64,000 bases of DNA from an uncultured Bacillales bacterium (GCA_937902735.1 CALELS010000015.1:154744-218743); one strand, 5' to 3'; positions 1,797-46,313 are shown, numbered from the stretch's first letter. The notes: a model not told the origin generated them from the letters alone. Translations and numbers: made by a program.

Positions 1797-2480
1797 ATGA
1801 AGAAAGTATTATTTAATTTTTTAAAAGGTATCTTAGCAGGTCTTGCTATTGGACTTGGGGGACTTTTATATATTTTAATGACAGCATTGTTCACAAACGA
1901 TATTGCTGAAATCGGAAAATTATTAGGTTCCATCTTATTTGCAATTGGTTTATTCCTTGTTTGCACTTTTTCTTTGTCGCTATACACAGGAAAAATAGGT
2001 CTAGTTTACGAGAAAAAGCAAGATAAGATATTTTATATATCTCTTCCAGTAATGCTTCTTGGAAACGCTATTGGAGCATTTGCTTTAGGTTATATCTGTT
2101 ATTTCATCTTTAGAAATGTTGAACCTATATATAACACTGCTAAAGCTGCAGCTAATGCTAGACTCATATTTAATGGACCAATTGATTACATTTTAACTTG
2201 TGTAAAATCATTCCTTTGTGGAGTGTGTGTCTATCTTGCAGTTAAAGCATTTAATTCAAATAGATTAAAACCTATTGGAATATTATTACTTGTATTCTTT
2301 GTATTTTTATTTGTTTATTGTGGATTCCAACACTGTATCGCTAATATGTTCTATTTTGGTATGGCAAATTCACTTTGCTGGCAAATGCCTGTCAATTTAG
2401 TATTAGTTATATTATTTAACTCCTTTGGTCCTATCATCGGAGTGTTACTAGTTAAAGTAATTAAAAACGCTAAAAACTAA
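1797..2480 (+). CDS. Formate/nitrite transporter (FNT) family channel protein
   Basis: Polytopic membrane protein with FNT signature motifs: SLSLYTGK (cf. ELFTGN) and GFQHCIANMFYFG (cf. GFEHSVANMF). Confidence 0.55.
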   Translation: MKKVLFNFLKGILAGLAIGLGGLLYILMTALFTNDIAEIGKLLGSILFAIGLFLVCTFSLSLYTGKIGLVYEKKQDKIFYISLPVMLLGNAIGAFALGYICYFIFRNVEPIYNTAKAAANARLIFNGPIDYILTCVKSFLCGVCVYLAVKAFNSNRLKPIGILLLVFFVFLFVYCGFQHCIANMFYFGMANSLCWQMPVNLVLVILFNSFGPIIGVLLVKVIKNAKN

Positions 2481-2989
2481 TCAAATAGTTTAGATAACTT
2501 AAGCAAATAAAGCTCATTATTCTTTTGCTTATGTTTTTTAGAAGTAAATACTTCTTTCCAGAAAATAGATTTATCTGCTAACGTGAGGATACGTGCTTCT
2601 TTTGTATCTGGGAATAAAGTGATGTTAAAAGGCCACATATGTCTTCTTATGATATCTTTTACATCATCTTCAATATTAAAGTCTCTAGAGGCGTTATTTA
2701 TAGATACTTCAGGATGTTTCTTACAATGAGACATCCTTTTATCTTTTTCAATCCTCCAATCATAAAGATAATAGTCATGAAGAATAGATCCTAATAATAA
2801 AGTCTTAAGATTAACATTCTTGTGTCTTAATCCTCTTTTGACTGCAAGTTTAGCAACTTTAAAAGAATGAATATAACAATTAGAACCTCGATGCATTGGA
2901 ATTGTTTGCATTTTTAAAATTCTTTCATCTTTGAATAATGATGAATAGATTTCTTCAAGTTCTAATTTTTCCTTATTATTTATATTCAT
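2477..2989 (-). CDS. HD-domain phosphohydrolase
   Basis: H...HD metal-binding motif (IHSFKVAKLA ... ILHDY) and downstream D; 170 aa. Confidence 0.5.
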   Translation of the reverse strand: MNINNKEKLELEEIYSSLFKDERILKMQTIPMHRGSNCYIHSFKVAKLAVKRGLRHKNVNLKTLLLGSILHDYYLYDWRIEKDKRMSHCKKHPEVSINNASRDFNIEDDVKDIIRRHMWPFNITLFPDTKEARILTLADKSIFWKEVFTSKKHKQKNNELYLLKLSKLFD

Positions 2990-4353
2990 TAATTTAATAT
3001 AGTTGGATCTTTAAACATATATATCTTCCATTGCATATATGTAACTTTGTTATATGTCACTTGATCTTGTTGATAAAGTGAATAGAAGATTGTAACAGTT
3101 TTATTATCGGTAAAATAACTATCATCAATATTTGGCCAATCATAATTATCATTATTAAATCTTGCATAATAACGTGACGCTGCAACTTGATTTGATGAAG
3201 GGGAAGTTGAGTAATATTGATCTCCGCATATTTCCTCATTAGATGAATTATTAATGTAATCAAAATATACAGTACTTTTATATACATATTGGAATGAAGA
3301 TAGATAATCTGGATATCTCCTATAATCCTTATCATCTAATTTAGGACGTTTAATATTAAATGTTTCTTTAATAGTGATATCTTTATAACTTTCATATGGA
3401 TCATCAACACTTACATCACTTTTAAGTTTATAATCAAGCACTCTAAGGGATGGTTTCCATTGATTGGTGGAAGTAAGTCCTGTGATATCATAGACACTTC
3501 CAACTGTAAATGTGGTGTTAGATATAAAGTCATACACTCCCATAATTTTCTTAGTTGAATCGGTAAATATCCAAGAATTGTTATCTGCTTTGCCAATGCA
3601 CTTAAGATCTTCCATTTTATGGATATAACCAATTCCTTGCCCTTTAGCGTTATAATCTGCTTCATTATTTACTACATTGTAGAATGAAGGAATAGAATCG
3701 ATATAACTAGTTGATAATTTATCTAAATCATAGGTGACTTCTAATTTTTCATCCCAAGTGAATGATTCACAAACAACTTCAGGTTGTCCACGATATAATC
3801 CAATTTTTCCTTTAATTATGTACTTTGAATTATGTTTTTGTTTATTATTTGAAAAAGATTGATACAAAGTATTTTGAGACTGGCTACCTGGTTGACTTGC
3901 AACAAAAATATAGCCTGTTTCATCAGCCACTAAAACTTTCATTTGTGGGGTATGATTCGCACTATTAGCTTTAGTATCTATTGAATCTATTGCTTGACCA
4001 ACAAATTCTACTTCAATTTCACTAGTAGTGATTTTAATATCATCAGTAGCAGGTGTTAATTTATTACATAACTCTTTAATCTCTTTAATAGTTTTAATAG
4101 TAGTTACTGGAGTTGGTGGAGTTGGAGGAGGATCTTCATGTGGTGGATCTTCTTCTTCATCTCCTCCTTCATCTGGAGGATTTACATCACCTTCGCCTTC
4201 ACTGCCTTCTCCTTCTCCTTCACTAGGAGTTTGTTCTCCCTCTGATTCACCTTCATCATCTTGATGAGGAATAGGAGTAACATCTTCCTGAGTTGGAAGA
4301 TTACAACCACTAAGGAGTAATGGAATTAGTAAAAACAATATATTTTTCTTCAT
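2989..4353 (-). CDS. Lipoprotein with acidic Gly/Glu-rich and Pro/Thr-rich linker, unknown function
   Basis: Start moved to internal ATG at 4353 (MKKNILFLLIPLLLSGC: lipobox LSGC). Mature protein begins with GESEGE...PPPTPPTP low-complexity linker, then a globular domain. Confidence 0.6.
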   Translation of the reverse strand: MKKNILFLLIPLLLSGCNLPTQEDVTPIPHQDDEGESEGEQTPSEGEGEGSEGEGDVNPPDEGGDEEEDPPHEDPPPTPPTPVTTIKTIKEIKELCNKLTPATDDIKITTSEIEVEFVGQAIDSIDTKANSANHTPQMKVLVADETGYIFVASQPGSQSQNTLYQSFSNNKQKHNSKYIIKGKIGLYRGQPEVVCESFTWDEKLEVTYDLDKLSTSYIDSIPSFYNVVNNEADYNAKGQGIGYIHKMEDLKCIGKADNNSWIFTDSTKKIMGVYDFISNTTFTVGSVYDITGLTSTNQWKPSLRVLDYKLKSDVSVDDPYESYKDITIKETFNIKRPKLDDKDYRRYPDYLSSFQYVYKSTVYFDYINNSSNEEICGDQYYSTSPSSNQVAASRYYARFNNDNYDWPNIDDSYFTDNKTVTIFYSLYQQDQVTYNKVTYMQWKIYMFKDPTILN

Positions 4354-4455: not shown

Positions 4456-4875
4456 CTACATTCCTTTTCTAACAATTTCGGCTATTAAAGGAAGATTTAA
4501 GTCTTTCTCGTTGTTTTCCTTCATTGTAATTTCAAAGCCTTCTTTTTTGGCGTATCTAGGGATTACATGAACATGGAAGTGATAAACGCTTTGACCTGCT
4601 TCTTTATTAACATTAGTTAAGACATTAACTCCTTTAGCACCTAAAACAGCAATATCAGCCTGACCAATGCGTTGAGCAACATCCATAACCTTATGCATTG
4701 TTTCTTTATCTACTGCTAAGAAGTTATCAAAATGTTCCTTTGGAATAACTAATGCATGACCTTTAGTAGTTTGTGATATATCTAAGAATGCAATCACATC
4801 ATCATCTTCATATATTGTGCTTGAAGGTATCTCATGATTAGCAATCTTACAAAATATGCAATCATCTTTTTTCAT
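4456..4875 (-). CDS. HIT-family (histidine triad) nucleotide hydrolase
   Basis: C-x-F-C N-terminal motif and HFHVHVIP histidine triad; RBS AAGGAG. Confidence 0.85.
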   Translation of the reverse strand: MKKDDCIFCKIANHEIPSSTIYEDDDVIAFLDISQTTKGHALVIPKEHFDNFLAVDKETMHKVMDVAQRIGQADIAVLGAKGVNVLTNVNKEAGQSVYHFHVHVIPRYAKKEGFEITMKENNEKDLNLPLIAEIVRKGM

Positions 4876-4892: not shown

Positions 4893-4918
4893 AAGAAAGG
4901 AGGGCGTAAACCCTCCTA
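4893..4918 (-). terminator. Intrinsic terminator after upstream lipoprotein gene
   Basis: Minus strand AGGAGGG-TTTACG-CCCTCCT followed by TTTCTTTT. Confidence 0.55.
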
Positions 4919-4924
4919 AATCAA

Positions 4925-6763
4925 TTATTCGAATAAATCAGGGAATTGTTCCTTGAAGTAATCAAGAAGTCCTTGATCGTGGTATGTAAGAGTGTACATT
5001 TCAACATATTCAGCATATGCCTTATTGGAATATGAATCTTTATTTGAAAGTTGTCTTACAATTTCGAAAGCCATTCTTTCAGTGAATAATGGGTCGTCTT
5101 TATGTTCGTCCATCTTTGAATAACCATCTTCAATGCTTAGTCTAGCAGTTGATGGAGCTTCGTTAACAATAACCATATAGTAGTTGGTTCCATCAACGAT
5201 AATCATGTTATAAGCAAAGCTTGCTCTTTCATACTTATCAGGAATCAAATAGTAGTTATCGTTAATATTACGAACATATTTCTTTGTTTGATCAAAGTTT
5301 GCAGCATATTGTTCAGTTGGCTTTGTAGTTTCCTTTTCAACTTTATATGTTGATTGAGTGGCTTGTGTATCAAGGTTACGGGAAGTAATGATGTTAAAGA
5401 GACGTCCACGAATTGATTCACTTGGATAGTCACTTAAACCACCATTTTTAACAAACCAACCTTCTTTTCTGAATTCTTCTTCGCTAACCTTAGCGAGTTC
5501 TTTCTTAAATCCAACTTCTTTTGGATAAGAGTTAGAACCAGTAAAGAGGCTTAAAGCACTTGAATATTTACCAGAAGCACCTTCTTCACCGTCTGGGTAA
5601 CGATTACCATCGATTTCATCGTTGTTAACGAGTTGCCATTTATCGAGAAGAATACCTAATTTAGTTTCACTAAAGTATGGAATTGTATCTTCGACTTCAT
5701 CACCACTCTCTTCATCAGTATGAGTGCCAACAACGAAATTTTTCTTAACTAAACCAGCTTTTTCAAGGATTGCAATTTCGTTTTTATCTAACGGAACAAT
5801 ATTTCCATTTTTGCCTAAACCTTTAAATCCTCTCCAAGCATTTTCGAGGTTTTCGAGATTGAGATTAGTAATGTTTGCGACTTCTTTATAGACAGCAAGG
5901 TCAACGTATGCACGCATAACTGCATATGGAACAGTTTGATAAGCAACATCATCGCTTGGTGCACTTAATTTAATTGTTTCAATGTTACGAGCATAGGTTC
6001 TACCTAAAGTTGAATAATAGTTTGTGTAGATATATTCTTCGACAATCTTCTCTTTTAGGATTTCTGGAAGAAGTTTGCGATTAATATAATCTTTGTAATA
6101 TTTCATTGAGATAACGCCAGAAACATCTTCTTTAGTTAAAGGTGTAGCAAGTGCAGTTAGATAACCTTTGAAGAAAGGTGTCTCATTATCTGCACGTGTA
6201 ATAGCGACATCATAGAAGTCAGCATATTTAGCATATGCATATTTGAGTTCAGAGAACTCTGAATCGGTTGAATAAGATGAAGATGTAATTTCGTCATAGA
6301 ATTGTTTGTTAAGACGTTTCATCATGTCATCATACATTTCTTTGACACGAGCAGCTTTGATTTCATCTTCGGTTTTACCAGTGCTAGTAGCAAGAGTAGC
6401 ATCATCTTCGCGGACATAAATTTTCTTATGTTCATTAGCAAATGCAACTTTTTCTTCGGCAGATTTATTGTTTAAAGCGAGGAGTTCATCATAAGATGAG
6501 AAGCCGAATTCTAATTTAGCTGTATGTTCTAAGAATTTTTGTAAAACACGATCATTTTCGCCTTTGGCGATTGCATCGTAGAGTTCACTCATTAAGTTCT
6601 TGTAAACATCAACTTTTTCTTTTGCTTCACCTTCACCAGTGAAAAGGATAGCGTCATCGCTGAACTTTGGAGCAACTTCAATATCGCTACAACCTGCTAA
6701 CATGCCTACGCATGAAAGAGCAAATAAAGCAGTAATAACTTTTTTATTTTTGAGTTGGGACAT
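4925..6763 (-). CDS. Large lipoprotein, unknown function (paralogous C-terminal region with next gene)
   Basis: Start set to ATG 6763 (RBS GAAGGAG 9 nt upstream; track start 6772 is a GTG abutting the RBS). Signal MSQLKNKKVITALFALSCVGMLAGC has a lipobox; overlaps upstream gene by 20 nt. Confidence 0.6.
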   Translation of the reverse strand: MSQLKNKKVITALFALSCVGMLAGCSDIEVAPKFSDDAILFTGEGEAKEKVDVYKNLMSELYDAIAKGENDRVLQKFLEHTAKLEFGFSSYDELLALNNKSAEEKVAFANEHKKIYVREDDATLATSTGKTEDEIKAARVKEMYDDMMKRLNKQFYDEITSSSYSTDSEFSELKYAYAKYADFYDVAITRADNETPFFKGYLTALATPLTKEDVSGVISMKYYKDYINRKLLPEILKEKIVEEYIYTNYYSTLGRTYARNIETIKLSAPSDDVAYQTVPYAVMRAYVDLAVYKEVANITNLNLENLENAWRGFKGLGKNGNIVPLDKNEIAILEKAGLVKKNFVVGTHTDEESGDEVEDTIPYFSETKLGILLDKWQLVNNDEIDGNRYPDGEEGASGKYSSALSLFTGSNSYPKEVGFKKELAKVSEEEFRKEGWFVKNGGLSDYPSESIRGRLFNIITSRNLDTQATQSTYKVEKETTKPTEQYAANFDQTKKYVRNINDNYYLIPDKYERASFAYNMIIVDGTNYYMVIVNEAPSTARLSIEDGYSKMDEHKDDPLFTERMAFEIVRQLSNKDSYSNKAYAEYVEMYTLTYHDQGLLDYFKEQFPDLFE

Positions 6764-8714
6764 AGCAAGCACCTCCTTCTACAGTCCAGTTAGCACCTTT
6801 AGAACTGTTTTTAGTTGTAAAGCCAATAGCGCAAGCTTCAGAAACAAGTTTACGTCTTTCGACTTTTTGTTGATTTAATGTATTAATATAGCTTTCCCAG
6901 GTTTCTTCCCAAGTATTAGCTGTATTAAATAATGAGTTGTTACGGTCTCTTTCAATCCATTCATTGATTTGAGCACCTAAATCATATTCAACCTCTTTTC
7001 CTTCAACAGTCGTGACTTTAATTTTGCCAATGCTAAGTTTTTGTCTTTCAACGTATTTGGAATAGATTAATTTATTAAGATTTGAAGAATCAAAATTTTT
7101 AATCTTTCCTTCAACTGTTTGAGCACGGCTCATTAAGTCTTGTTCTTTTTGGTTAAGGAAGTTGACATAGGAGTTGGCAACGAATTTTGGATCGTCTTTC
7201 TTATAGACAACAGAGTAGTAATCGCTTAATGGATTAGCTTCAGTGTCAACAAGACCACTTCTTTCAACGACCATAAAGTGGACGCCTTTATAATCGCTTG
7301 TACCTGCACGGACAACTAAGATAGGTTTTCCATCTTTTGTGCAGAGAACTTTTTGCTTGATTGGGTCGCCAGATGTTTCATCATAATCAATGATGACATC
7401 TTGGAAACCTTTCATTCCAACAAATGTATCACTTAATTTTCCAACGGTATTTTCTTTAGCAAAATCAAAAGTGTCTTCAGTGACTTCATCATCATTTGCT
7501 GGAATATCGTATGGAGTAATGAATGCGACATTGTGTCTATTTAAATACTTATTATAAATAACGTTTCTTGGATAGAAAGCTGAGTTGTTTTCGTTAACAA
7601 CTTCACCAATAGATGTATTGGTTGTGGTTGCCCATTTGTTCATGGCAATGAATGCACCATAAGGAATAGTAGCAATCTTACCAGCAGCGTCTCCACCTAA
7701 GTCTTTTTTAGCGGCGTTACGTTCGTAGGTAACAGCTTGGGCGTACTTACCAGCAATATCTAAACCTTTTTGACCAACGATATCTTTGTATTTGAAGTTG
7801 GCAGCATGTGTAGCATTGTAATCAATTGAGATTTCACTTGCTTTTGCTTCCTCTTGATTTGCGCCGTATAAGTTTTCGTAAGCGTAGATACCTAACTTAA
7901 ATTCGTTAACGTAGCTTGTATCTTTATCTACGATTTCAAGTTCACCATAGTTAGCGGCTGAACCATCGGAGAATTCACTTGAGTTTTGAGCGATTTGACC
8001 AAAGTCAAGTTGTCCTTCAGCGAGTGATCTAGCAACTGTAAGTAAGTTCTTAGCATCTTTATCGTTAATTGTATCGTTCCAATATGCATCATTAGATGTG
8101 GAACCATCAAACTTAACCAAGATGTGACGAACGTGGTATGGAACTTTTCTTTCAAGATAACCACTGAAATCTTTTGTGCTTTCAGCTTTGTGATCACGAA
8201 GATATTCGATACCTGTCTTATCACCAAAGATGGTTTTGTTATCGTAGAATTGTTTTTCAAATTCTGTTTTTTCTCTGTCGTAAATGAAGTGTTCGAGTAA
8301 TTCTTCTTCATCTTCGCAAGAGTAACTTTCGAGTAATTTATCAAATTCCTCTGAATAGCTCGTCTTATTTGATTCAGCATTCTTCTTTGCAGTGGTACGA
8401 ACACCTTCGACATCGTTTTCAGCGTCCTTTTTGATGTCGGTGTATTTGCTCTTACCAGCATCTTCTACCTTGAAGTAATTGCGGATAATTAATGAGTAGA
8501 CCTTATCAAACATTGAAGCAATGCTTGAAGATTGGGTGAAATAACTACCGAATAATTCTTCAGAAGTATAGTGGAATGTTGTACCGGACGAGTTTGTATA
8601 GGTTAATACATATCCTTCGGAAGAAGCTTTTGGTTTGACTTGGCTACAGCTAGCTAAAGCGGCAACACTTGCAAGACCTGCAACTATTCCGAGGCTAATT
8701 TTAGATTTTTTCAT
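6744..8714 (-). CDS. Large lipoprotein, possible parvulin-like (PpiC) foldase domain
   Basis: Start at internal ATG 8714 with perfect RBS AGGAGG 7 nt upstream. Signal MKKSKISLGIVAGLASVAALASC has a lipobox; motif VPYHVRHILVKF resembles the parvulin PPIase signature; C-terminal region resembles the downstream lipoprotein. Confidence 0.55.
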   Translation of the reverse strand: MKKSKISLGIVAGLASVAALASCSQVKPKASSEGYVLTYTNSSGTTFHYTSEELFGSYFTQSSSIASMFDKVYSLIIRNYFKVEDAGKSKYTDIKKDAENDVEGVRTTAKKNAESNKTSYSEEFDKLLESYSCEDEEELLEHFIYDREKTEFEKQFYDNKTIFGDKTGIEYLRDHKAESTKDFSGYLERKVPYHVRHILVKFDGSTSNDAYWNDTINDKDAKNLLTVARSLAEGQLDFGQIAQNSSEFSDGSAANYGELEIVDKDTSYVNEFKLGIYAYENLYGANQEEAKASEISIDYNATHAANFKYKDIVGQKGLDIAGKYAQAVTYERNAAKKDLGGDAAGKIATIPYGAFIAMNKWATTTNTSIGEVVNENNSAFYPRNVIYNKYLNRHNVAFITPYDIPANDDEVTEDTFDFAKENTVGKLSDTFVGMKGFQDVIIDYDETSGDPIKQKVLCTKDGKPILVVRAGTSDYKGVHFMVVERSGLVDTEANPLSDYYSVVYKKDDPKFVANSYVNFLNQKEQDLMSRAQTVEGKIKNFDSSNLNKLIYSKYVERQKLSIGKIKVTTVEGKEVEYDLGAQINEWIERDRNNSLFNTANTWEETWESYINTLNQQKVERRKLVSEACAIGFTTKNSSKGANWTVEGGACYVPTQK

Positions 8715-8975
8715 ATGAAACCTATTTCCTCCTTTAAACATAACGTTAACAATTCTATTACTTTGCTTGTATAAATACAACAAGAAAATATCAAAGAAAA
8801 TTGAGGCAATGTTTTATTTATAAAAAAGATTATTTATGGAAAATACACCGAAATGATTGGCAAAATGATAGAGTAAAGTTTCTAATCATTTGAAAAATGA
8901 GTAATTTTATAGGTAATATCGTTTGTAAATATTTTTTGTGGTGATTAGAATATTTACGTTTCAAGGAGAAAAGGT

Positions 8976-9794
8976 ATGGCAAAACTCGTTATTAAAAATC
9001 TCCATGTTTCCGTTGGAAATAAAGAAATATTAAAAGGATTAGATTTTGAATTTGAATCAACAGAATCTATCGCTCTTTTAGGTCCAAATGGTAATGGTAA
9101 ATCAACCCTTCTTCAAACAATTATGGGTAATCCAAATTATGTTATTACAGAAGGCACAATTGAATTTGATGGAGTAGATATTACTTCTATAGAAGTAAAT
9201 GAACGTTCAAAACTAGGAATTTTCTTAGGAATGCAAAATCCATCGGAAGTTCCGGGAGTCAATAATAGTGATTTCTTAAAAGCAAGTTTGAACACCCATC
9301 GAGAAAAGCCAATTTCTTTATTTGAATTTTATAAACTTTTAGATAATGCCTACCAAAAAACTCATATTCCTTTTGAAATGTCTAATCGTAATTTGAATGA
9401 AGGTTTTTCTGGTGGAGAAAAAAAGAAAAACGAAATACTACAAATGCTAGTTTTAAATCCAAGACTTGTCATGCTTGATGAAATTGATTCTGGTCTTGAT
9501 GTAGACGCTATTCAAATTGTGGCAAACATAATTAAAGAAAAGCAAAGTGAAGGAAAAGGATTCTTGGTCGTTTCTCACTATGCAAGACTTTATGATCTTA
9601 TTAATATTGACCGTGCAGCAATTCTAATTAATGGAAAAATTGCAACTATTGGTGGTCGTGAATTAATTAAGAAAATCGATGAGCAAGGATATGAATGGAT
9701 CAAAACTGAACTCGGTATTGAAATTGAAAAAGAACAAACTATGTCAAATGTATCTTTAGGTACATGTGCTACAAAGGTCGCTCTTAAAAAATAA
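8976..9794 (+). CDS. sufC: Fe-S cluster assembly ATPase SufC
   Basis: Walker A GPNGNGKST, ABC signature FSGGEKKK, D-loop MLDEIDSGLD; first gene of the suf cluster. Confidence 0.85.
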   Translation: MAKLVIKNLHVSVGNKEILKGLDFEFESTESIALLGPNGNGKSTLLQTIMGNPNYVITEGTIEFDGVDITSIEVNERSKLGIFLGMQNPSEVPGVNNSDFLKASLNTHREKPISLFEFYKLLDNAYQKTHIPFEMSNRNLNEGFSGGEKKKNEILQMLVLNPRLVMLDEIDSGLDVDAIQIVANIIKEKQSEGKGFLVVSHYARLYDLINIDRAAILINGKIATIGGRELIKKIDEQGYEWIKTELGIEIEKEQTMSNVSLGTCATKVALKK

Positions 9795-34068: not shown

Positions 34069-36177
34069 ATGATAACTTACCGTCTTGATAACGTATCCAA
34101 ATCGTTTGGAAGTGATAAATCCAAATTTTATGCGTTAAGAAACATAAATATTCTTTTTCCTTCAAAAGGACTAGTTGTAATAGCAGGTAAATCGGGCAGT
34201 GGGAAATCAACTCTTCTAAACATTCTCATGGGAATTGAAAAAATTAGTGAAGGAAATATCTATTTTGAGAATAAAAAGATTAATAAACAAAATGATAAAG
34301 AGCTTTCTCACTTCCACTTGAATAAAGTATCGATGATATATCAACATTACAATTTGTTGGATGAACTAACGTCAATTGAAAATGTTTGTCTTCCATTGAT
34401 GATGAAAGGCTATTCACTAAATGAAGCAAAAAAAGAGGCAAAGACATTTTTTCAAGATTTAGATATTGAACCTTTAGAAAATAGAAGGGTTTCAACTTTA
34501 AGTGGAGGAGAGAAACAAAGAATAGCTATCATTAGAGCAATTATTTCAAAACCACAAGTTCTATTATGCGATGAACCTACTGGTGCACTTGATACTAAAA
34601 ACGGTAACGAAATTATGAAAATATTAAAAAAGTTATCAAAAAGTATTCTTGTTATCATGGTTTCACACAATGAGAACCAGATTAAAAAATATGCTGATAG
34701 AAAAATCTATTTAAAAGATGGAATGATTGAAAAAGATGATGGTAAGAATAACGTTAATCTAGATTATAGTGTTACAAAGCACAAATACAAATATTCATCA
34801 CTTTGGAAAAGGTTTGTTTTAAAGATTCATCTAAAAGAGAATCTAAAAAAGAACATATTTTCCTTTATTGTTTTGACTTTTGGATTAGTTGTTTCGTTTT
34901 TATCAATTGGTTTTGTAACTTCTTCATCGAAGTCTTTTGATAATTTGTTATATCAATCAGTTAGCTCGTGCTCTGGGAAAATTAGCGATGAAACAGTAGT
35001 TAAAATAAACAACTCTCCACTCAATTTTATCAAGGTTGTGCGGCCAAATTTGAATGAAATAGAAGATAATCTTGATGATATTAACTCTCTAAAAATAATG
35101 AATAATTATGAGTTTCTATTTTTAAATTATCCAGAAACAACATTTAATAAGAAACTAGTAGATCCACCAACCTTGATACCTGTGTATTCGTTCAATAATA
35201 ATCAAATAATAGAATCTCTTTTGGTCGAGGGTACCATTCCATTAGTAGACACAATAGAAGAGGTGATTATAAATGAAGAATTTGTTAAGTCTTTAAAACT
35301 TACGAATAAAGAAGCAATAAATAAAGAGATTGTTATTTCATCAATTAGAGAAATTAGTATATCTACTGGAGATAGTTCGAATCCTTTTATTAAAGATAAT
35401 TTTTCATACAACATAACGTTAATAATAAGAGGAGTAGTTAAAGAGTTTGGCTTTTTAAATAGCCCGAAAGTCTATTATTCTAACATCGGTCTTGAACGTT
35501 ATTTATCCAATCAGATAATGTTAAATTATTCTAAATATTGTCAACAAAGAATTTCCTATAAAACCTACTTTGAAACACTAGATAACAATAACCAAATTAC
35601 ATCCTATTCATATTTATTATTTGTAGATAACAATCAAGATATTAATAAACTATATTCAAATTTTAAAAATCTAAAAAATGCAGAAATTTCATTAACGATC
35701 GATTCTTCGTTTTTCGAGTCGTATTCTTCGTATAGAAGTTTAATAGATACCTTCTCGTATGCTCTTTTGGCTTTTTCAGTTATTTGTTTTTTAGGAATTA
35801 ACCTAATTTTGGGTATGCTTTCTTTATCTTCTTTTATTAAAAAGAAAAAAGAATCTGCAATTCTGACCTGTATAGGAGCCACAAATAGTTCAATTAAAAC
35901 GTTATTTCTTAATGAAATACATTTAGTCTTAATCTTTGCTTTTATTAGTTCTATTGGACTTTCGTTGTTGTTTGAAAGACTTTTAAATCCATTATTTGAA
36001 AAGTCATATGGATTAGAAAATCTCTTTTATATTCCGTTTTTAAATTTTAACGGAGTCCCTTTTCTACTACCTATTGGTTTATTAATTCTTTTTCTAGTAA
36101 TTTCATCATTATTTATTTTGATACCAATTTCAATTTATAAATCTAAATCAATTAGTGAAGAGTTGAGGGATGAATAA
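34069..36177 (+). CDS. Fused ABC transporter ATPase + FtsX-like permease (MacB family)
   Basis: N-terminal Walker A GKSGSGKST, signature LSGGEKQR, Walker B LLCDEPTGALD; C-terminal 4-TM FtsX-like domain. Confidence 0.8.
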   Translation: MITYRLDNVSKSFGSDKSKFYALRNINILFPSKGLVVIAGKSGSGKSTLLNILMGIEKISEGNIYFENKKINKQNDKELSHFHLNKVSMIYQHYNLLDELTSIENVCLPLMMKGYSLNEAKKEAKTFFQDLDIEPLENRRVSTLSGGEKQRIAIIRAIISKPQVLLCDEPTGALDTKNGNEIMKILKKLSKSILVIMVSHNENQIKKYADRKIYLKDGMIEKDDGKNNVNLDYSVTKHKYKYSSLWKRFVLKIHLKENLKKNIFSFIVLTFGLVVSFLSIGFVTSSSKSFDNLLYQSVSSCSGKISDETVVKINNSPLNFIKVVRPNLNEIEDNLDDINSLKIMNNYEFLFLNYPETTFNKKLVDPPTLIPVYSFNNNQIIESLLVEGTIPLVDTIEEVIINEEFVKSLKLTNKEAINKEIVISSIREISISTGDSSNPFIKDNFSYNITLIIRGVVKEFGFLNSPKVYYSNIGLERYLSNQIMLNYSKYCQQRISYKTYFETLDNNNQITSYSYLLFVDNNQDINKLYSNFKNLKNAEISLTIDSSFFESYSSYRSLIDTFSYALLAFSVICFLGINLILGMLSLSSFIKKKKESAILTCIGATNSSIKTLFLNEIHLVLIFAFISSIGLSLLFERLLNPLFEKSYGLENLFYIPFLNFNGVPFLLPIGLLILFLVISSLFILIPISIYKSKSISEELRDE

Positions 36178-38984
36178 TGATTGAAATCAAGAATATAAGA
36201 AAATCATATAATGAAAATTATGTTTTAAAAAACATTGATTTAACGCTACCTAATAAAGGACTTTTAATTATTGAAGGCGAATCAGGAAGCGGAAAAACAA
36301 CATTATTAAACATTATTGGCGGAATAATAAAACCAAGTGATGGAATAGTATCAATTGATGGAATAAATATAAACGAGCTATCCGATAAGGATTTAGATAC
36401 TTTTAGAATTAAAAATATCGGTTATGTATTTCAATCGTTTAATCTTTTGGAACTCGAAACTGTATTTGATAATGTACGAATGCCATTAGAATCAATTTCT
36501 AATTCACCTAGTTATATTATTAATAAAAGAGTAGAAGATTTACTCCAAGAATTATCAATAAAAAAATTAAGAAAAAAGCAAATTAACAGGCTTTCTGGTG
36601 GAGAAAAACAAAGAGTTGCAATCGCAAAAGCACTAATAAATAATCCAAAAATAATTCTTTGTGATGAGCCTACAGGTGCTCTTGATATAAACAACACAAA
36701 GAATATATGTGAGATCCTTAAACAAGTATCCATTCATTCTTTAGTAATAGTTGTCACACATGATGTTCAATCTTTTAAAGATTATGCTGATCGAATTATT
36801 TCAATTAAAGATGGACATGTTACGAAGGACATAGAATTAAACAATAAATATAATAAGCACAGATCACTCTTAGTGGTAGGAACGTCTAAACTACAAAAAA
36901 AGTCATATCTTCCTTTAAGTTTTAAGATTAAACATGCTTTTCATAAAATCTCATCAAAAAAGTGGAGATTTATGATTTCGAATTTTATGTTATCTCTTTC
37001 AATAACTGGCATAGGATTATCTTTTCTAGTTTCCTTTAGTCTTGCTGATAAGATACAAACAGCATTTTCTTCATTATTGAATGGCAACCAAATATTGGTT
37101 ACATCCCGAAATCAAGCTATGAACGATTTTGGCGCTGTTTATTCAATAAATGAAAATGATATTAAAGATATATACGAAAGATATATTTCATATCTTAATG
37201 GAGCAGGAGTTTCTTATTTAATAAACTTCGAAGATTTCTTTAAGGATGGAAATAATGTTTATATAAATGATGATAAATATTCAAATCTTATTCCTTCTTT
37301 ATCTGCCAGATCATTTAATGATTACACTTGGATTGATGAAAACATTAGAAGACAAATATCTCCTTCAATTAATGATGAATTAGATAAAGATGAAGTTGTT
37401 TTGGCCCTAACCTATGTTGACATGATTAACATAACTTACAATTTAAAAATTCAAAGGAATTTTGAGTCTTTAGCAAACTATATTTATCATAATGATCTAA
37501 CATTAACTTTAAGTGTTTCAAATTCATCGTGGCAGTATTCAGATGAACAGATATTCAATATTGTAGGTGTATATGAAGATGAAAATACACATCTTAGTCA
37601 AACAAGAAAATTGTGGAATCAAGAAATCTTTGAAGAAGAGATGCGGTTTCCTTCAAATGATGGGAGTCAATCATATTTTCCTTGGGAAATGTACAAAATA
37701 CATTATTTAAATACTAAGGGTAATTCATCTTCTTTTTTAGATGCCATAATGAATGATGATTTACTTTATGACTATGTATTTGAAAGAACAAGTTATGATA
37801 TTCATCCTTCAATATGTCCTATCAACGAACCATGTAAAGCGAATCGTGTAATTGTATATTCAGTTGATAAAAATACAATTCGAACTGGAGTATTACTAGA
37901 TATATTAAGAAGAAATGATAATTTTAAAAACTATTTTTTCATGTCTAATGGCGGGTATGTAAGTTATGGTTCAATGATACTCGATGGATTTGCTAATCAA
38001 ACTTTTTTCTCTATTTCTCTAGAAAAAAATGAAACTGCAATAGATGCTGATTTATCAAGAGGTGACGATGAAACCTTATCTTTAGATTTACCAAAAGGTG
38101 TTCTTAAAGGATATTTTATGGAGGCTATGAACGATGGGGTTAAATTCTCAACAAAATATGATAATTTAGTTTCTGGAAGAGAAGCTTTAAACAACAAAGA
38201 AATAGTAATTTCAAAAGCAATGGCAGATAAACTTGATAATGGATTTGATGTATTAAATTCTTATTTATTCATCTCCTCATTAGTGCCTTCTGTGAATGGC
38301 GATTTAACGAAAAACTACCGCACAAGTCGTGTAAAAATTGTTGGAATAGCAGATTCAAATAAAAATGTCATATATCACAATTCAAACTGGACAATTTCAT
38401 TTTTTAGAGATGAATTGGGAATGTCATCGTTTCTTCTTTGCCCAAACGCTTTAGTAATTGAACTTGACAAAAGTATTGATCCCTTGCCTTATATTAATCG
38501 GTTAAATAAAACGTATTACGATTTTAAATTTTCAAGCCCATTAGAGGATATAAAGAATAGTATTAACTCAACATTAGATTTTATAAAACTAATAGTTATC
38601 TTATTTTCTATTTTGGCAGGTTCAATTTCTTTACTTCTTTTATCAACATTGTTGTTACTAAATTTTTTAGAGAATGAGCATGAGGTAAAAATTTTTAAAT
38701 ATAGTGGGATCTCATATAGTGATATTAATTCTCAATTTATAGTTGATTCATTGCTACAAACATTTATAGCTTTTGTAATTTCAATGATTGAATTAATTGT
38801 TGTTGATGTCGTTAGTGGCCAAGCAATAAACGAAATGTTGGGAATAAGTGGGAGTTTCTCGCTCGATTTCCTCCCATTGTTACTAACGTTTGTAATAACA
38901 ATATCTACTTCTTATCTATTATCTAAAGCAATTGTTTTAGTGAAGATATTAACCGAGAAAAAGCAAAAGATGAAAAAGACATGA
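36177..38984 (+). CDS. Fused ABC transporter ATPase + FtsX-like permease with ~500-aa extracytoplasmic domain (MacB family)
   Basis: Walker A GESGSGKTT, LSGGEKQR, ILCDEPTGALD; TM1, then a long extracytoplasmic region, then C-terminal FtsX-like TM bundle. Confidence 0.8.
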   Translation: MIEIKNIRKSYNENYVLKNIDLTLPNKGLLIIEGESGSGKTTLLNIIGGIIKPSDGIVSIDGININELSDKDLDTFRIKNIGYVFQSFNLLELETVFDNVRMPLESISNSPSYIINKRVEDLLQELSIKKLRKKQINRLSGGEKQRVAIAKALINNPKIILCDEPTGALDINNTKNICEILKQVSIHSLVIVVTHDVQSFKDYADRIISIKDGHVTKDIELNNKYNKHRSLLVVGTSKLQKKSYLPLSFKIKHAFHKISSKKWRFMISNFMLSLSITGIGLSFLVSFSLADKIQTAFSSLLNGNQILVTSRNQAMNDFGAVYSINENDIKDIYERYISYLNGAGVSYLINFEDFFKDGNNVYINDDKYSNLIPSLSARSFNDYTWIDENIRRQISPSINDELDKDEVVLALTYVDMINITYNLKIQRNFESLANYIYHNDLTLTLSVSNSSWQYSDEQIFNIVGVYEDENTHLSQTRKLWNQEIFEEEMRFPSNDGSQSYFPWEMYKIHYLNTKGNSSSFLDAIMNDDLLYDYVFERTSYDIHPSICPINEPCKANRVIVYSVDKNTIRTGVLLDILRRNDNFKNYFFMSNGGYVSYGSMILDGFANQTFFSISLEKNETAIDADLSRGDDETLSLDLPKGVLKGYFMEAMNDGVKFSTKYDNLVSGREALNNKEIVISKAMADKLDNGFDVLNSYLFISSLVPSVNGDLTKNYRTSRVKIVGIADSNKNVIYHNSNWTISFFRDELGMSSFLLCPNALVIELDKSIDPLPYINRLNKTYYDFKFSSPLEDIKNSINSTLDFIKLIVILFSILAGSISLLLLSTLLLLNFLENEHEVKIFKYSGISYSDINSQFIVDSLLQTFIAFVISMIELIVVDVVSGQAINEMLGISGSFSLDFLPLLLTFVITISTSYLLSKAIVLVKILTEKKQKMKKT

Positions 38985-44750: not shown

Positions 44751-46313
44751 ATGAAGAATAGGTTTTTAACAACATTATTATTAATTCCTTTGCTTGCTGG
44801 TTGTCCTGGTACTCCTGCTAGTGATGAACCACAATCAATGCCTGATGATTATGTTCCTGCTAACTTACCCGATTACTACGAAGATAAGAATACAGGTGCA
44901 ATTAAAAGTGATGAAGACTATGTCTATTTCGACATTTATGGCATAAGCGACTTCCATGGAGCAGTTAATTATAACAAAGATAATAAAGAACTTGGTCTTG
45001 CAAGACTCTCCTCATATTATGACAAGAAAAGAGAAGATAACCCTGGTGGAACTCTTCTTCTTTCTAGTGGTGATATGTGGCAAGGTAGTGCAGACTCAAA
45101 TTTAACAAGAGGAACCATGGTTACATATTCTATGAATTTAATGGACTTTGATTCTATGGCTCTTGGTAATCACGAATTTGACTGGACTATTGATTGGATT
45201 AAGAACAACAAAGAACGTGCAAACTTCCCATTAGTATGTGCAAACTTAATTAATAAAGATACTCATGAAATTGCTGATTTTGTAACCCCGTCCACCATTA
45301 TTGAACGTGGCCAAGGTGAAGAAAAATACAAAATTGGTGTTGTTGGCACAATTGGAGACAACATCAAAAATACAATCATTGCTTCGGCAGTTGCTGAATA
45401 TGAATTTGCTGATGAAATCCAAACGGTTAAGTCCGAAACTCAAAAATTACGTGAACAAGGCTGTGATATCGTTGTCTGGACATCTCATAATGACGCCAAA
45501 ACTTTAAAAGAAAGAGTTGGTAGAGATAATCCAGGTGTTGACCTCGTTATCGGTGGTCATAGCCATGTTACTTATGTTGATCAATTAGGTGAAGTTGCTT
45601 TTATGCAATCAAAAGCTTATGGTCATTCTTTAACACATGCAACTCTTAGACTTAATAAGGATACTCGTTCTGTAAGTCTTGAAGCAATTAATGCTGATGA
45701 CAACCCAACTGAAAATGAAATTGAAGAAGATGCACAAGTTGCTGCTTTAGTTAATGAATATCAAGAAAAATTCATTAATCCAGTTAAGAATAGGGTTGTA
45801 GGTAGTGTTGATGCCGATTTAACAATTAAAGAAACACTTTCCAATCTTTGCGTTTATTCAATGGCAGAAGAATTAAAAAGAAATGAACAATTCTCTTCAT
45901 ACGAAGTTAGAGCAGCATTCCATAACGTTAATGGTGGTGTTCGTAAAGATATCCTTGCTGGTGAAATTAGCTATGGTAATGTATATGAATCGTTCCCATT
46001 TGATAATGAAATCGTTATTTTGAAACTTAATGGTTATTATCTCTATTACGATTTCTATTCAAAAAAGAATAACACTGCTATTTGGCATAGTTTTGAAACA
46101 GCTGATGATATCAAAGATGACGAAGAATATTACATCATCACGACTGATTTCTTACTCACAAACAATGATTACTATGCTCCAACTCAAAAGAATATCAAGG
46201 AAGTAATCTATACAAACATCATGGTTCGTGATGCTGTTGCAAATCAAATCAAATTATCCTCGCCTCTTGTTAGTGAAGATTATTCAATGTATAGATCTTG
46301 CTTCAAACGTTAA
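44751..46313 (+). CDS. Lipoprotein 5'-nucleotidase / 2',3'-cyclic phosphodiesterase (UshA/YfkN family)
   Basis: Lipobox LLAGC; metallophosphatase motifs DFHG, GDMWQG, GNHEFDW, plus a 5'-nucleotidase C-terminal domain. Confidence 0.75.
   Translation: MKNRFLTTLLLIPLLAGCPGTPASDEPQSMPDDYVPANLPDYYEDKNTGAIKSDEDYVYFDIYGISDFHGAVNYNKDNKELGLARLSSYYDKKREDNPGGTLLLSSGDMWQGSADSNLTRGTMVTYSMNLMDFDSMALGNHEFDWTIDWIKNNKERANFPLVCANLINKDTHEIADFVTPSTIIERGQGEEKYKIGVVGTIGDNIKNTIIASAVAEYEFADEIQTVKSETQKLREQGCDIVVWTSHNDAKTLKERVGRDNPGVDLVIGGHSHVTYVDQLGEVAFMQSKAYGHSLTHATLRLNKDTRSVSLEAINADDNPTENEIEEDAQVAALVNEYQEKFINPVKNRVVGSVDADLTIKETLSNLCVYSMAEELKRNEQFSSYEVRAAFHNVNGGVRKDILAGEISYGNVYESFPFDNEIVILKLNGYYLYYDFYSKKNNTAIWHSFETADDIKDDEEYYIITTDFLLTNNDYYAPTQKNIKEVIYTNIMVRDAVANQIKLSSPLVSEDYSMYRSCFKR

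Follow-up and report, generated by a model that had tools for sequence, protein, structure and literature searches.

Overlapping genes for two lipoproteins, one with a split PrsA-like parvulin domain and one predicted to be PrsA-like, conserved in an uncultured lineage of Bacilli

Two large lipoprotein genes overlap next to the suf genes of an uncultured Bacillales bacterium, and the question that this locus raises is what such a pair does outside the membrane and how its two products are related. In the 64,000-nucleotide stretch of DNA that we analyzed (the window), positions 4925..8714 hold two long open reading frames on the minus strand, here called gene A and gene B. From its ATG at 8714, gene A encodes MKKSKISLGIVAGLASVAALASC, and gene B, from its ATG at 6763, MSQLKNKKVITALFALSCVGMLAGC. 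The TAA stop of gene A ends at 6744, so that the 20-nt overlap reported in an earlier, sequence-only reading is exact. That reading also described the pair as divergent from suf, and sufC indeed begins at 8976 on the opposite strand.

6744..8714, minus strand: gene A, a 656-aa PrsA-like lipoprotein with a split parvulin PPIase domain
8646..8714, minus strand: signal peptide and L-A-S-C lipobox of A (residues 1-23), Cys23 invariant in 107 sequences
4925..6763, minus strand: gene B, a 612-aa lipoprotein, predicted PrsA/SurA/PpiD-like chaperone with a parvulin-fold domain lacking the catalytic residues
6744..6763, minus strand: 20 nt shared by the 3' end of A and the 5' end of B, read from the sequence and suggestive of translational coupling
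6772..6776, minus strand: Shine-Dalgarno GGAGG of gene B, in the codons for the near-invariant Gly647-Gly648 of A
8865..8894, minus strand: promoter-like site 5' of gene A, 9 of 12 matches in a consensus scan (weak evidence)
4898..4917, minus strand: terminator-like hairpin AGGAGGGTTTACGCCCTCCT followed by a T-run, 8 nt past the stop of B, from a consensus scan

The lipoprotein assignment made for both proteins holds, with a lipobox (L-A-G-C in B) whose cysteine, Cys25 in the case of B, is invariant. The GGAGG lies 8 nt 5' of the ATG of gene B, and the two glycines of A that it encodes, G647 and G648, show conservation of 90% or more in the family alignment. Genes A and sufC share a common divergent spacer of 261 bp, which holds the promoter-like site at 8865..8894; the consensus scan found fewer such sites in this divergent region than in shuffled sequence.

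This arrangement is not a product of chance, given that the order sufC, A, B, HIT gene is kept in 82 of 84 related loci and that the start of B overlaps the stop of A, by 1 to 23 nt, in every one of the 80 scorable loci. B follows A in 82 of the 84 loci, the remaining two of which end at or just past A. A GGAGG-like site precedes the start of B in all 80 scored loci, always within the codons for the conserved C terminus of A, and both the overlap and the internal Shine-Dalgarno site persist among proteins down to 23-33% identity. The lipobox is present in every orthologue of B. The pair is single copy, syntenic, and vertically conserved throughout the lineage, which goes against the proposal that it arose by duplication for the sake of variation. 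No fused A-B protein was seen among the homologues, the longest of which has 752 aa. Further downstream in the window lie a gene for a third lipoprotein (4353..2989) and a small HD gene (2989..2477). Both were considered as counterparts of the OB+HD gene that follows the HIT gene in relatives, and both were rejected, the former showing no similarity to it and the latter weak similarity in the HD domain alone (E 0.002).

Protein A had been singled out for a PrsA/PpiC-like motif, and this motif, VPYHVRHILVKF, is present at residues 191-202 (window 8144..8109), on the first predicted strand of what appears to be a split parvulin domain.

7869..8144, minus strand: N-terminal part of the A parvulin domain (residues 191-282) with H194, H197, and D250, from profile alignment to PrsA and Pin1
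7326..7868, minus strand: insertion of about 180 residues in the A parvulin domain (residues 283-463), from model secondary structure and conservation
7257..7325, minus strand: C-terminal part of the A parvulin domain (residues 464-486), PILVVRAGTSDYKGVHFMVVERS, with predicted strands 3 and 4 and H479

The PrsA/PpiC-type domain anticipated from the motif emerges at the level of the family rather than through a Pfam match of A itself. Full-length A does not match the Pfam Rotamase models at E values up to 1, scans against Pfam and NCBIfam assign neither A nor B to a family, and phmmer searches with both proteins against the PDB gave no matches. When the insertion is removed in silico (residues 186-284 joined to 459-492), the Rotamase score is 15.4 bits (E 0.038; cut-off, 21.7), and the spliced domain has no match in the PDB. 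PF00639/PF13616 domains are found in full-length homologues of A, some of which go by the name of peptidylprolyl isomerase; Rotamase_3 (PF13616) is matched by 47 of the 63 full-length family members, with a best E value of 1.4e-9. The A-family profile further matches Staphylococcus aureus PrsA (2jzv; E 2.8e-7), as well as the parvulin domains of Pin1 and SurA. Judged from these matches, A belongs to a parvulin-containing family with conserved catalytic residues.

The alignment of the profile to PrsA and Pin1 spans profile positions 188-254, and the match to the PDB profiles ends ahead of the insertion. H197 and D250 are placed as catalytic residues by this alignment. The best Pin1 match has an aligned Asp where other Pin1 entries have Cys or Ser, a position that we take to be Pin1 Cys113. 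H479 is probably the remaining catalytic histidine, as its position in the last predicted strand suggests. All four residues, H194, H197, D250, and H479, are 100% conserved in the 107 sequences. The insertion has an invariant motif of its own, Y-P-R-N-x-x-x-N-x-x-x-N-x-H (P382, R383, N384, N388, N392, and H394), and might alter or even abolish the isomerase activity of A.

Structure prediction, which had been suggested as a check, points in the same direction, with a parvulin fold predicted for A and a parvulin-like fold for B. In the AF2 model of A (pLDDT, 87.7; pTM, 0.84), the predicted parvulin fold consists of a four-stranded sheet with helices and appears to be flanked by helical N- and C-terminal regions, as in the NC chaperone domain. 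The insertion falls between the helix at 270-282 and the strand at 464-471, and an extra C-terminal tail carries a conserved pair of cysteines. In Foldseek searches with this model, the top seven hits are all full-length PrsA or PrsA-type PPIase chains, with a best probability of 0.96, and PrsA and Mycoplasma pneumoniae Mpn444 are its best matches among solved structures.

Protein B belongs to a family with 337 clusters at 50% identity, which so far have a hypothetical annotation or none; further members of the family came from an exhaustive representative search with the B profile. Searches by sequence did not connect B with Rotamase or SurA-type models, nor with any solved parvulin. The HMM search put forward earlier divides the pair, in that the A family has Rotamase matches even though A itself has none, whereas none of the 34 B-family members does. 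The AF2 model of B (pLDDT, 79.9), for which the input alignment comprised exclusively B-family sequences, predicts a SurA-like helical domain and a parvulin fold, and it retrieves the PrsA proteins of Enterococcus faecium, Bacillus, and Streptococcus pneumoniae.

5156..6001, minus strand: predicted parvulin-like fold region of B, approximate (residues about 255-536)

The first predicted strand of this region is YARNIETIKL, with the invariant R259, and the last predicted strands are MIIV and NYYMVIVNEA, with the invariant A536; a long insertion separates the former from the latter. The residues invariant across 139 sequences are C25, E172, R259, W436, and A536, and no His or Asp in residues 113-594 is at least 80% conserved in this set. 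On the strength of the model, B is predicted to be a PrsA/SurA/PpiD-like chaperone whose parvulin fold lacks the catalytic residues.

Taken with the conserved gene arrangement, these observations favor the view that A and B probably make up an extracellular foldase whose two subunits, one active and the other inactive, are translationally coupled, and which is a variant of PrsA and of the Mycoplasma Sec-dome proteins. A surface foldase, one of two functions proposed from the sequence, is accordingly the best functional reading of the pair. The two genes would form an operon for a membrane-anchored extracytoplasmic protein-folding device, in which A would be a greatly enlarged PrsA-type lipoprotein whose parvulin domain retains a putative His/Asp/His set (H197, D250, and H479). 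B would be a second PrsA/SurA/PpiD-like lipoprotein that holds or binds clients without isomerizing them, because the catalytic residues have been lost from its predicted parvulin-fold domain. Since the final codons of A contain both the ribosome-binding site and the start codon of B, the two proteins are likely to be made by coupled translation in a fixed proportion. Most likely, the two would combine at the outer surface of the membrane to give a hetero-oligomer with a single active site, a heteromeric counterpart of the PrsA homodimer that might take over unfolded proteins emerging from the Sec channel.

It is possible, if on balance unlikely, that A and B instead act as separate extracytoplasmic chaperones, with A as a PrsA-type foldase and B as an independent tethered holdase of the PpiD/SurA kind with its own clients, and that the overlap serves coexpression only. 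Cotranscription and coupling are also found where the encoded proteins do not interact, which counts against a complex of A and B. However, an overlap with an internal Shine-Dalgarno site in 80 of 80 loci, at identities as low as 23-33%, fits a fixed stoichiometry better, and in the closest solved relative, the M. pneumoniae dome, such paralogues do assemble: cross-links among all three Mdps (Mpn444, Mpn436, and Mpn489) indicate a heterotrimer (bioRxiv 10.1101/2025.04.25.650208).

Among the closest known systems are the PrsA proteins of Bacillus, Listeria, Streptococcus, and Staphylococcus, lipoprotein foldases which share with A an N-terminal lipobox and extracytoplasmic location, a parvulin domain flanked by helical chaperone regions at both termini, and a His/Asp/His active site in which the Asp aligns with the active-site Cys of Pin1. 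They differ from A in size, the solved chains having 258-275 residues, so that A with its 656 aa is about twice as large, in having an uninterrupted parvulin domain where that of A is split by the conserved insertion, and in lacking the C-terminal tail with the Cys pair. The gene for PrsA stands alone, and PrsA forms homodimers, as Jakob et al. reportedly described in 2015; A, in contrast, is always coupled in translation to a second PrsA-like protein, which is apparently inactive. B, for its part, has neither sequence similarity to PrsA nor its catalytic residues. PpiD and SurA, chaperones of the Gram-negative periplasm, have parvulin domains that are catalytically inactive and in this respect resemble what is predicted for B. 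In contrast to them, B is anchored by a lipid rather than a transmembrane helix, contains large insertions specific to its lineage, lacks detectable similarity to them in sequence, and is always coupled to a putatively active parvulin partner.

A precedent is the Sec-associated dome of M. pneumoniae, which consists of three PrsA-like lipoproteins; the catalytic residues are retained in Mdp444 alone (bioRxiv 10.1101/2025.04.25.650208). PPIase activity has been measured for Mpn444 and Mpn436, both of which also bind unfolded protein, and the PPIase domain of Mpn444 has an insertion at aa 353-470 (bioRxiv 10.1101/2024.09.05.611430), which lies at the same point of the domain as that of A. The Mdps are about 1000-1300 aa long, with two PrsA-like units (SurA-like plus PPIC) per chain (bioRxiv 10.1101/2025.04.25.650208, 10.1101/2024.09.05.611430), whereas A and B, of about 600 aa each, are made separately from overlapping genes and apparently have one such unit apiece, according to the order of their secondary structure elements. 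Mdp444 also has Arg in place of the first catalytic His, which A retains. The sole annotated domain of the Mdps is InterPro IPR022186, of unknown function, and their homologues have been reported from Mycoplasmoidaceae only (bioRxiv 10.1101/2025.04.25.650208). Homology to the Mdps was not recovered by sequence, as neither A nor B has a Pfam match and their profiles miss the Mpn444 and Mpn436 chains at E values up to 10; the likeness of both proteins to Mpn444 is one of predicted structure, without a sequence-level relationship.

The role of B could be questioned more radically, in that it might be no chaperone at all but a surface lipoprotein for ligand or nutrient binding or adhesion that is cotranscribed with A, its resemblance to PrsA and SurA being spurious or vestigial. 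We consider this very unlikely. Nutrient binding, the other function proposed from the sequence, is not supported, as the pair lacks a solute-binding-protein signature, has no permease for a neighbor, and matches chaperones in fold.

A and B had further been described as paralogues with related C-terminal regions, of which the latter point is not borne out. The pairwise alignment recommended as a check yields no significant similarity (BLASTP E 0.26), reciprocal searches of each family with the hmmsearch profile of the other give scores no better than those of shuffled sequences, and hhalign of the two profiles with the signal peptides trimmed gives E values of 0.1 or worse, with no improvement upon addition of model secondary structure to both. 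An hhalign E value of 1.9e-5, obtained with the first alignments and displayed with a C-terminal alignment, was an artifact of the signal peptide. With deeper alignments the match shifted to the N terminus, and with the option -norealign the significant score came from A 24-182 against B 9-162, spanning the signal peptide and lipobox; the C-terminal alignment displayed had arisen from the realignment step of the program, in a region different from the one scored. The paralogy itself fails in the sequence tests. Because both models independently retrieve PrsA, SurA, PpiD, and Mpn444, down to the same chains (9ibn_B, 5tvl_A, 6vj6_B, 4g2p_B, 3gpk_B, 9qgq_A, and 9gn0_A), an ancient common origin of A and B is plausible. 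Their hhalign alignments are weak and collinear. A recent tandem duplication that yielded two paralogous lipoproteins for antigenic variation or specialization would account for tandem lipoproteins of similar size with PrsA-like predicted folds, but it is extremely improbable, as mature A and B have no detectable sequence similarity, the window holds neither further copies of A or B nor repeats, and separate orthologues of the two occur in all related genomes examined, so that any duplication predates the whole lineage.

This lineage comprises uncultured Bacilli from gut, rumen, and freshwater, and the relatives include "Candidatus Enteromonas," a member of the family CAG-826 in the order RFN20 (PMC8035907). 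CAG-826 is predicted to be peptidoglycan deficient (PMC10868615), and a wall-less state of the organism behind the window is no more than plausible. How proteins fold at the Sec exit without a wall or periplasm was largely obscure until the work of 2024-2026 on Mpn444 and the Mdp dome, and Mdp-type proteins have so far been traced within Mycoplasmoidaceae only. What is new here is a strictly conserved, translationally coupled pair of apparently PrsA-like lipoproteins, one catalytically equipped and the other degenerate, through which the B family gains a testable function. The pair also offers a simpler two-component system for the study of heteromeric extracellular foldases and an outgroup for the origin of the Mycoplasma dome.

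A more speculative idea, which we regard as unlikely, is that the pair corresponds to the Mycoplasma Sec-dome proteins in an unfused form, possibly that of their evolutionary precursor, and that overlapping genes of a common ancestor, one A-like and active and the other B-like and inactive, became fused. Compatible with this idea are the insertion at a common point of the parvulin domain and the ranking of Mpn444 as the best structural match of A. If it were true, Sec-bound multisubunit folding chambers derived from PrsA would not have been invented by the Mycoplasmoidaceae but would be ancestral to the RFN20 and Mycoplasmatales radiation and tied to the disappearance of the wall. In the Mdps, an N-terminal PrsA-like unit, with the catalytic residues kept in Mdp444, is followed by a second PrsA-like unit. 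The RFN20 family CAG-826 adjoins the Mycoplasmatales. The window is read with genetic code 11, unlike Mycoplasma DNA.

Two long ORFs (genetic code 11) lie on the minus strand between positions 4925 and 8783. Both products, of the upstream gene A and the downstream gene B, begin with classical lipoprotein signals, and the lipobox cysteine is invariant in each of the two families.

Features of the A-B locus
8894..8865: weak promoter-like site preceding A
8714..6744, minus strand: gene A, most plausible start ATG at 8714 with AGGAGG upstream; product of 656 aa, N terminus MKKSKISLGIVAGLASVAALASC
A residues 191-202: motif VPYHVRHILVKF
7530..7571, minus strand: invariant motif P-R-N-x-x-x-N-x-x-x-N-x-H, A residues 382-395
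6776..6772, minus strand: Shine-Dalgarno sequence of B, GGAGG, 8 nt 5' of the B ATG
6763..4925, minus strand: gene B, most plausible start ATG at 6763; product of 612 aa, N terminus MSQLKNKKVITALFALSCVGMLAGC
4917..4898: terminator-like hairpin directly after the B stop
4875..4456: gene for a HIT family protein, next downstream of B

The TAA stop of A ends at 6744, giving an overlap with B of exactly 20 nt. Gene positions, lipoprotein signals, overlap, and motif all agree with the sequence-only reading. Given the hairpin after B and the weak promoter-like site before A, the pair looks like a bicistronic unit. Upstream of A, at a distance of 261 bp, the opposite strand has the start of sufC, which is followed by sufD, sufS, sufU, sufB, and mnmG. 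The GGAGG of B coincides with the codons of Gly647-Gly648 of A, which are near-invariant and part of a conserved C-terminal GGxCY motif; the same bases (6772..6776) thus serve two purposes and, as read from the sequence, are constrained by both protein conservation and a translation signal. The C-terminal tail of A (residues 628-650; 6765..6833, minus strand) also bears a cysteine pair (SEACAIGF…GGACY), with C628 in 96% and C650 in 100% of 107 sequences, which suggests that this extracytoplasmic protein, from a lineage associated with anaerobes, may contain a disulfide or bind a metal there.

The prediction that A is parvulin-like found no support in searches with its own sequence, which retrieved no Pfam or NCBIfam match at E values up to 1 and no PDB match by phmmer, but it held at the level of the family. 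Among 680 database homologues, full-length relatives with 35 to 47% identity bear PF00639/PF13616, a few of them under the name "peptidylprolyl isomerase [Bacilli bacterium]." Rotamase_3 matches 47 of the 63 members of the A family alignment (best E value, 1.4e-9), and the family profile retrieves from the PDB the parvulin domain of Staphylococcus aureus PrsA (2jzv; E value, 2.8e-7), along with many Pin1 entries and SurA. The best Pin1 match, 2rud, has an Asp where other Pin1 entries show Cys or Ser, at what we take to be the position of the active-site Cys113 of Pin1, and this Asp aligns with the invariant Asp of the A family. H194, H197, D250, and H479 are kept in 107/107 sequences, and the parvulin site of A is predicted to be probably active. 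With its insertion deleted in silico, the A protein of the window scores only 15.4 bits against Rotamase, below the cutoff of 21.7; it is a divergent member within its family.

The profile match spans only the first two-thirds of the parvulin domain (roughly residues 194-262) and is followed by about 180 residues that correspond to nothing in parvulins. The AlphaFold2 model (pLDDT, 87.7; pTM, 0.84) accounts for this by placing an inserted region before the last two parvulin strands.

Elements of the AlphaFold2 model of A (residues)
193-201: strand 1, followed by three helices
258-262: strand 2
270-282: helix
283-463: inserted region
464-471 and 476-485: last two strands, carrying PILVVRAGTSDYKGVHFMVVERS, including H479

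In Foldseek searches of the PDB with this model, the seven best matches are full-length PrsA or PrsA-type PPIase chains, led by Listeria monocytogenes PrsA1 (probability, 0.96) and then those of Streptococcus pneumoniae and Enterococcus faecium. The insertion contains the invariant motif Y-P-R-N…N…N-x-H (P382, R383, N384, N388, N392, and H394) and, judging from its sequence, is clearly functional. A is predicted to act like PrsA and passes the parvulin tests at the family level, but differs from a typical PrsA in its doubled size, its split catalytic domain, and its obligatory partner gene. Taken alone, A is a divergent but otherwise ordinary protein of a known kind; PPIase annotations already exist for some of its relatives.

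That partnership extends well beyond the window. Scanning GTDB with one genome for each species recovered 386 A relatives; the 80 listed all come from uncultured-type assemblies, mostly labeled Bacilli or Erysipelotrichaceae (rumen, gut, feces, and some freshwater), and include Candidatus Enteromonas, Alloenteromonas, Onthovivens, and Fiminaster. The closest GTDB species match to the window A among those listed has 54% identity, and the closest metagenomic match has 72% and the same synteny. A B orthologue lies directly 3' of A in 82 of the 84 loci fetched, the other 2 ending at or just after A; divergent sufC is upstream in 80 and the HIT gene comes next in 78. In all 80 loci with an assignable B start, that start overlaps the end of A by 1 to 23 nt (mostly 11, 14, or 20) and B has a lipobox, with a GGAGG-like site inside A upstream of the start. 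In nearly all pairs, conservation is lower for B than for A (e.g., 63 versus 72%, 46 versus 54%, and 23 versus 33%). Such strict coupling despite divergence to 23 to 33% identity argues for required coproduction of the two proteins in a fixed ratio.

The B family (33 close homologues; 337 clusters at 50% identity) yielded no matches in a Pfam scan of 34 members and none by sequence in the PDB. An AlphaFold2 model built on an alignment of B family sequences only (pLDDT, 79.9; pTM, 0.76) resembles the following structures.

Solved chains matching the B model, with the two values of each comparison
E. faecium PrsA: 6.2; 192
PpiD-YfgM: 6.1; 160
SurA PPIase II: 5.4; 99 of 108
Borrelia BB0108 PPIase: 5.4; 97
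SurA PPIase I: 5.3; 84
PpiC-type domain (3gpk): 5.2; 97
Bacillus PrsA: 5.2; 176
LIC12922 (termed SurA-like in a cited source): 5.2; 173

In the B model, the element resembling strand 1 is YARNIETIKL, which contains invariant R259, and the terminal strands (…NYYMVIVNEA) include invariant A536. The parvulin-like region of B shows neither a conserved His nor a conserved Asp among 139 sequences, indicating that the catalytic set is gone. From its model, the most fitting description of B is a new family, so far unannotated, of predicted PrsA/PpiD-like pseudoisomerase lipoproteins. A motif R-x-R-L-F-N in B (R454, L455, and F456), at a comparable position, loosely resembles that of the A insertion, without statistical support.

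A and B had also been proposed to be paralogues with related C-terminal regions. BLASTP gives an E value of 0.26 between them, and a first profile-profile comparison (hhalign) gave a probability of 78% and an E value of 1.9e-5 while the alignment that it displayed covered 218 columns in the C-terminal halves. With deeper alignments the match shifted to the N terminus, and in the original comparison run without realignment, the significant score belonged to A 24-182 and B 9-162, which hold both signal peptides and lipoboxes. The program had paired the score and E value of the initial match with a realigned alignment of another region, which rules out the value of 1.9e-5 as proof of related C termini. 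With signal peptides trimmed, as those of lipoproteins should be ahead of such comparisons, the E value was 0.1 or worse at every setting, and reciprocal hmmsearch of each profile against the other family scored no better than against shuffled sequences. Sequence gives no support to paralogy or to related C termini; what survives of the proposal comes from the predicted folds: the elements of B appear collinear with those of A (N-terminal helices, strand-1-like element, helices, long insertion, terminal strands, and C-terminal helices), and from this order we infer a shared topological position for the insertion in the two proteins. By fold, A and B probably share a common origin, but an ancient one. 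The accompanying suggestions of variation and nutrient binding are unlikely.

We propose that A is a PrsA-type extracytoplasmic foldase, lipid anchored on the outer side of the membrane and probably with an active parvulin site, and that B would provide a second PrsA/PpiD-like chaperone scaffold, a holdase without catalysis, the two being delivered together by coupled translation. In work from 2015, Jakob et al. reportedly found that PrsA acts as a homodimer, with a cradle for clients built from its chaperone domains. By this precedent, the simplest model has A and B in a hetero-oligomer that contains a single active site and would take up unfolded chains emerging from the Sec translocon.

Among systems studied by experiment, the nearest parallel is the dome of Mycoplasma pneumoniae, in which three PrsA-like lipoproteins, Mdp436, Mdp444, and Mdp489, sit over the Sec translocon, with only Mdp444 retaining the catalytic residues (bioRxiv 10.1101/2025.04.25.650208). 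The PPIase domain of Mpn444 (aa 230-237, 279-352, and 471-504) is split at the point where that of A is split (bioRxiv 10.1101/2024.09.05.611430). However, the Mdps have two PrsA-like units per chain, whereas A and B apparently have one each; Mdp homologues are reported in Mycoplasmoidaceae only, and neither Pfam nor family profiles compared with the Mpn444 and Mpn436 chains detected A or B as members of that family. It is rather improbable that A and B together preserve an ancestral, still unfused state of the two-unit Mdp proteins. The A-B finding holds up, in a sharper form than the sequence-only reading could give it; its interest lies in a universally coupled PrsA-like partner, predicted to be catalytically dead, and in the connection by structure with the recently described folding dome of Mycoplasma.

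The genes examined in the window (GC content, ~28 to 36%) are all open under translation table 11 with no recoding of TGA as Trp, unlike those of Mycoplasmatales; the genome is therefore not of the Mycoplasma type. Candidatus Enteromonas belongs to order RFN20, family CAG-826 (PMC8035907), and a wall-less organism is plausible. Further genes in the window are as follows.

2989..4353, minus strand: third lipoprotein, 454 aa, N terminus MKKNILFLLIPLLLSGC, then a low-complexity linker that is acidic and rich in Pro (EGEGEG…PPTPPTP)
34069..38984, plus strand: neighboring pair of large proteins, of 702 and 935 aa, each with an N-terminal ABC ATPase domain
44751..46313, plus strand: protein with lipoprotein-type signal MKNRFLTTLLLIPLLAGC and metallophosphatase and 5'-nucleotidase C-terminal domains

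Neither Pfam nor NCBIfam gave a family match for the third lipoprotein. Where its gene comes after the HIT gene in the window, relatives have an OB+HD (YhaM-like) gene, recX, and a gene for a GT4 glycosyltransferase, and this break in synteny makes the third lipoprotein gene look like a lineage-specific addition. One relative's locus has a ParE toxin-DUF6290 antitoxin pair between the HIT and OB+HD genes (9116..9597 of L002). The first protein of the 34069..38984 pair combines its ATPase with an FtsX-like permease domain and is thus a predicted fused MacB-type ABC transporter, and the 44751..46313 product probably scavenges nucleotides as a surface nucleotidase.
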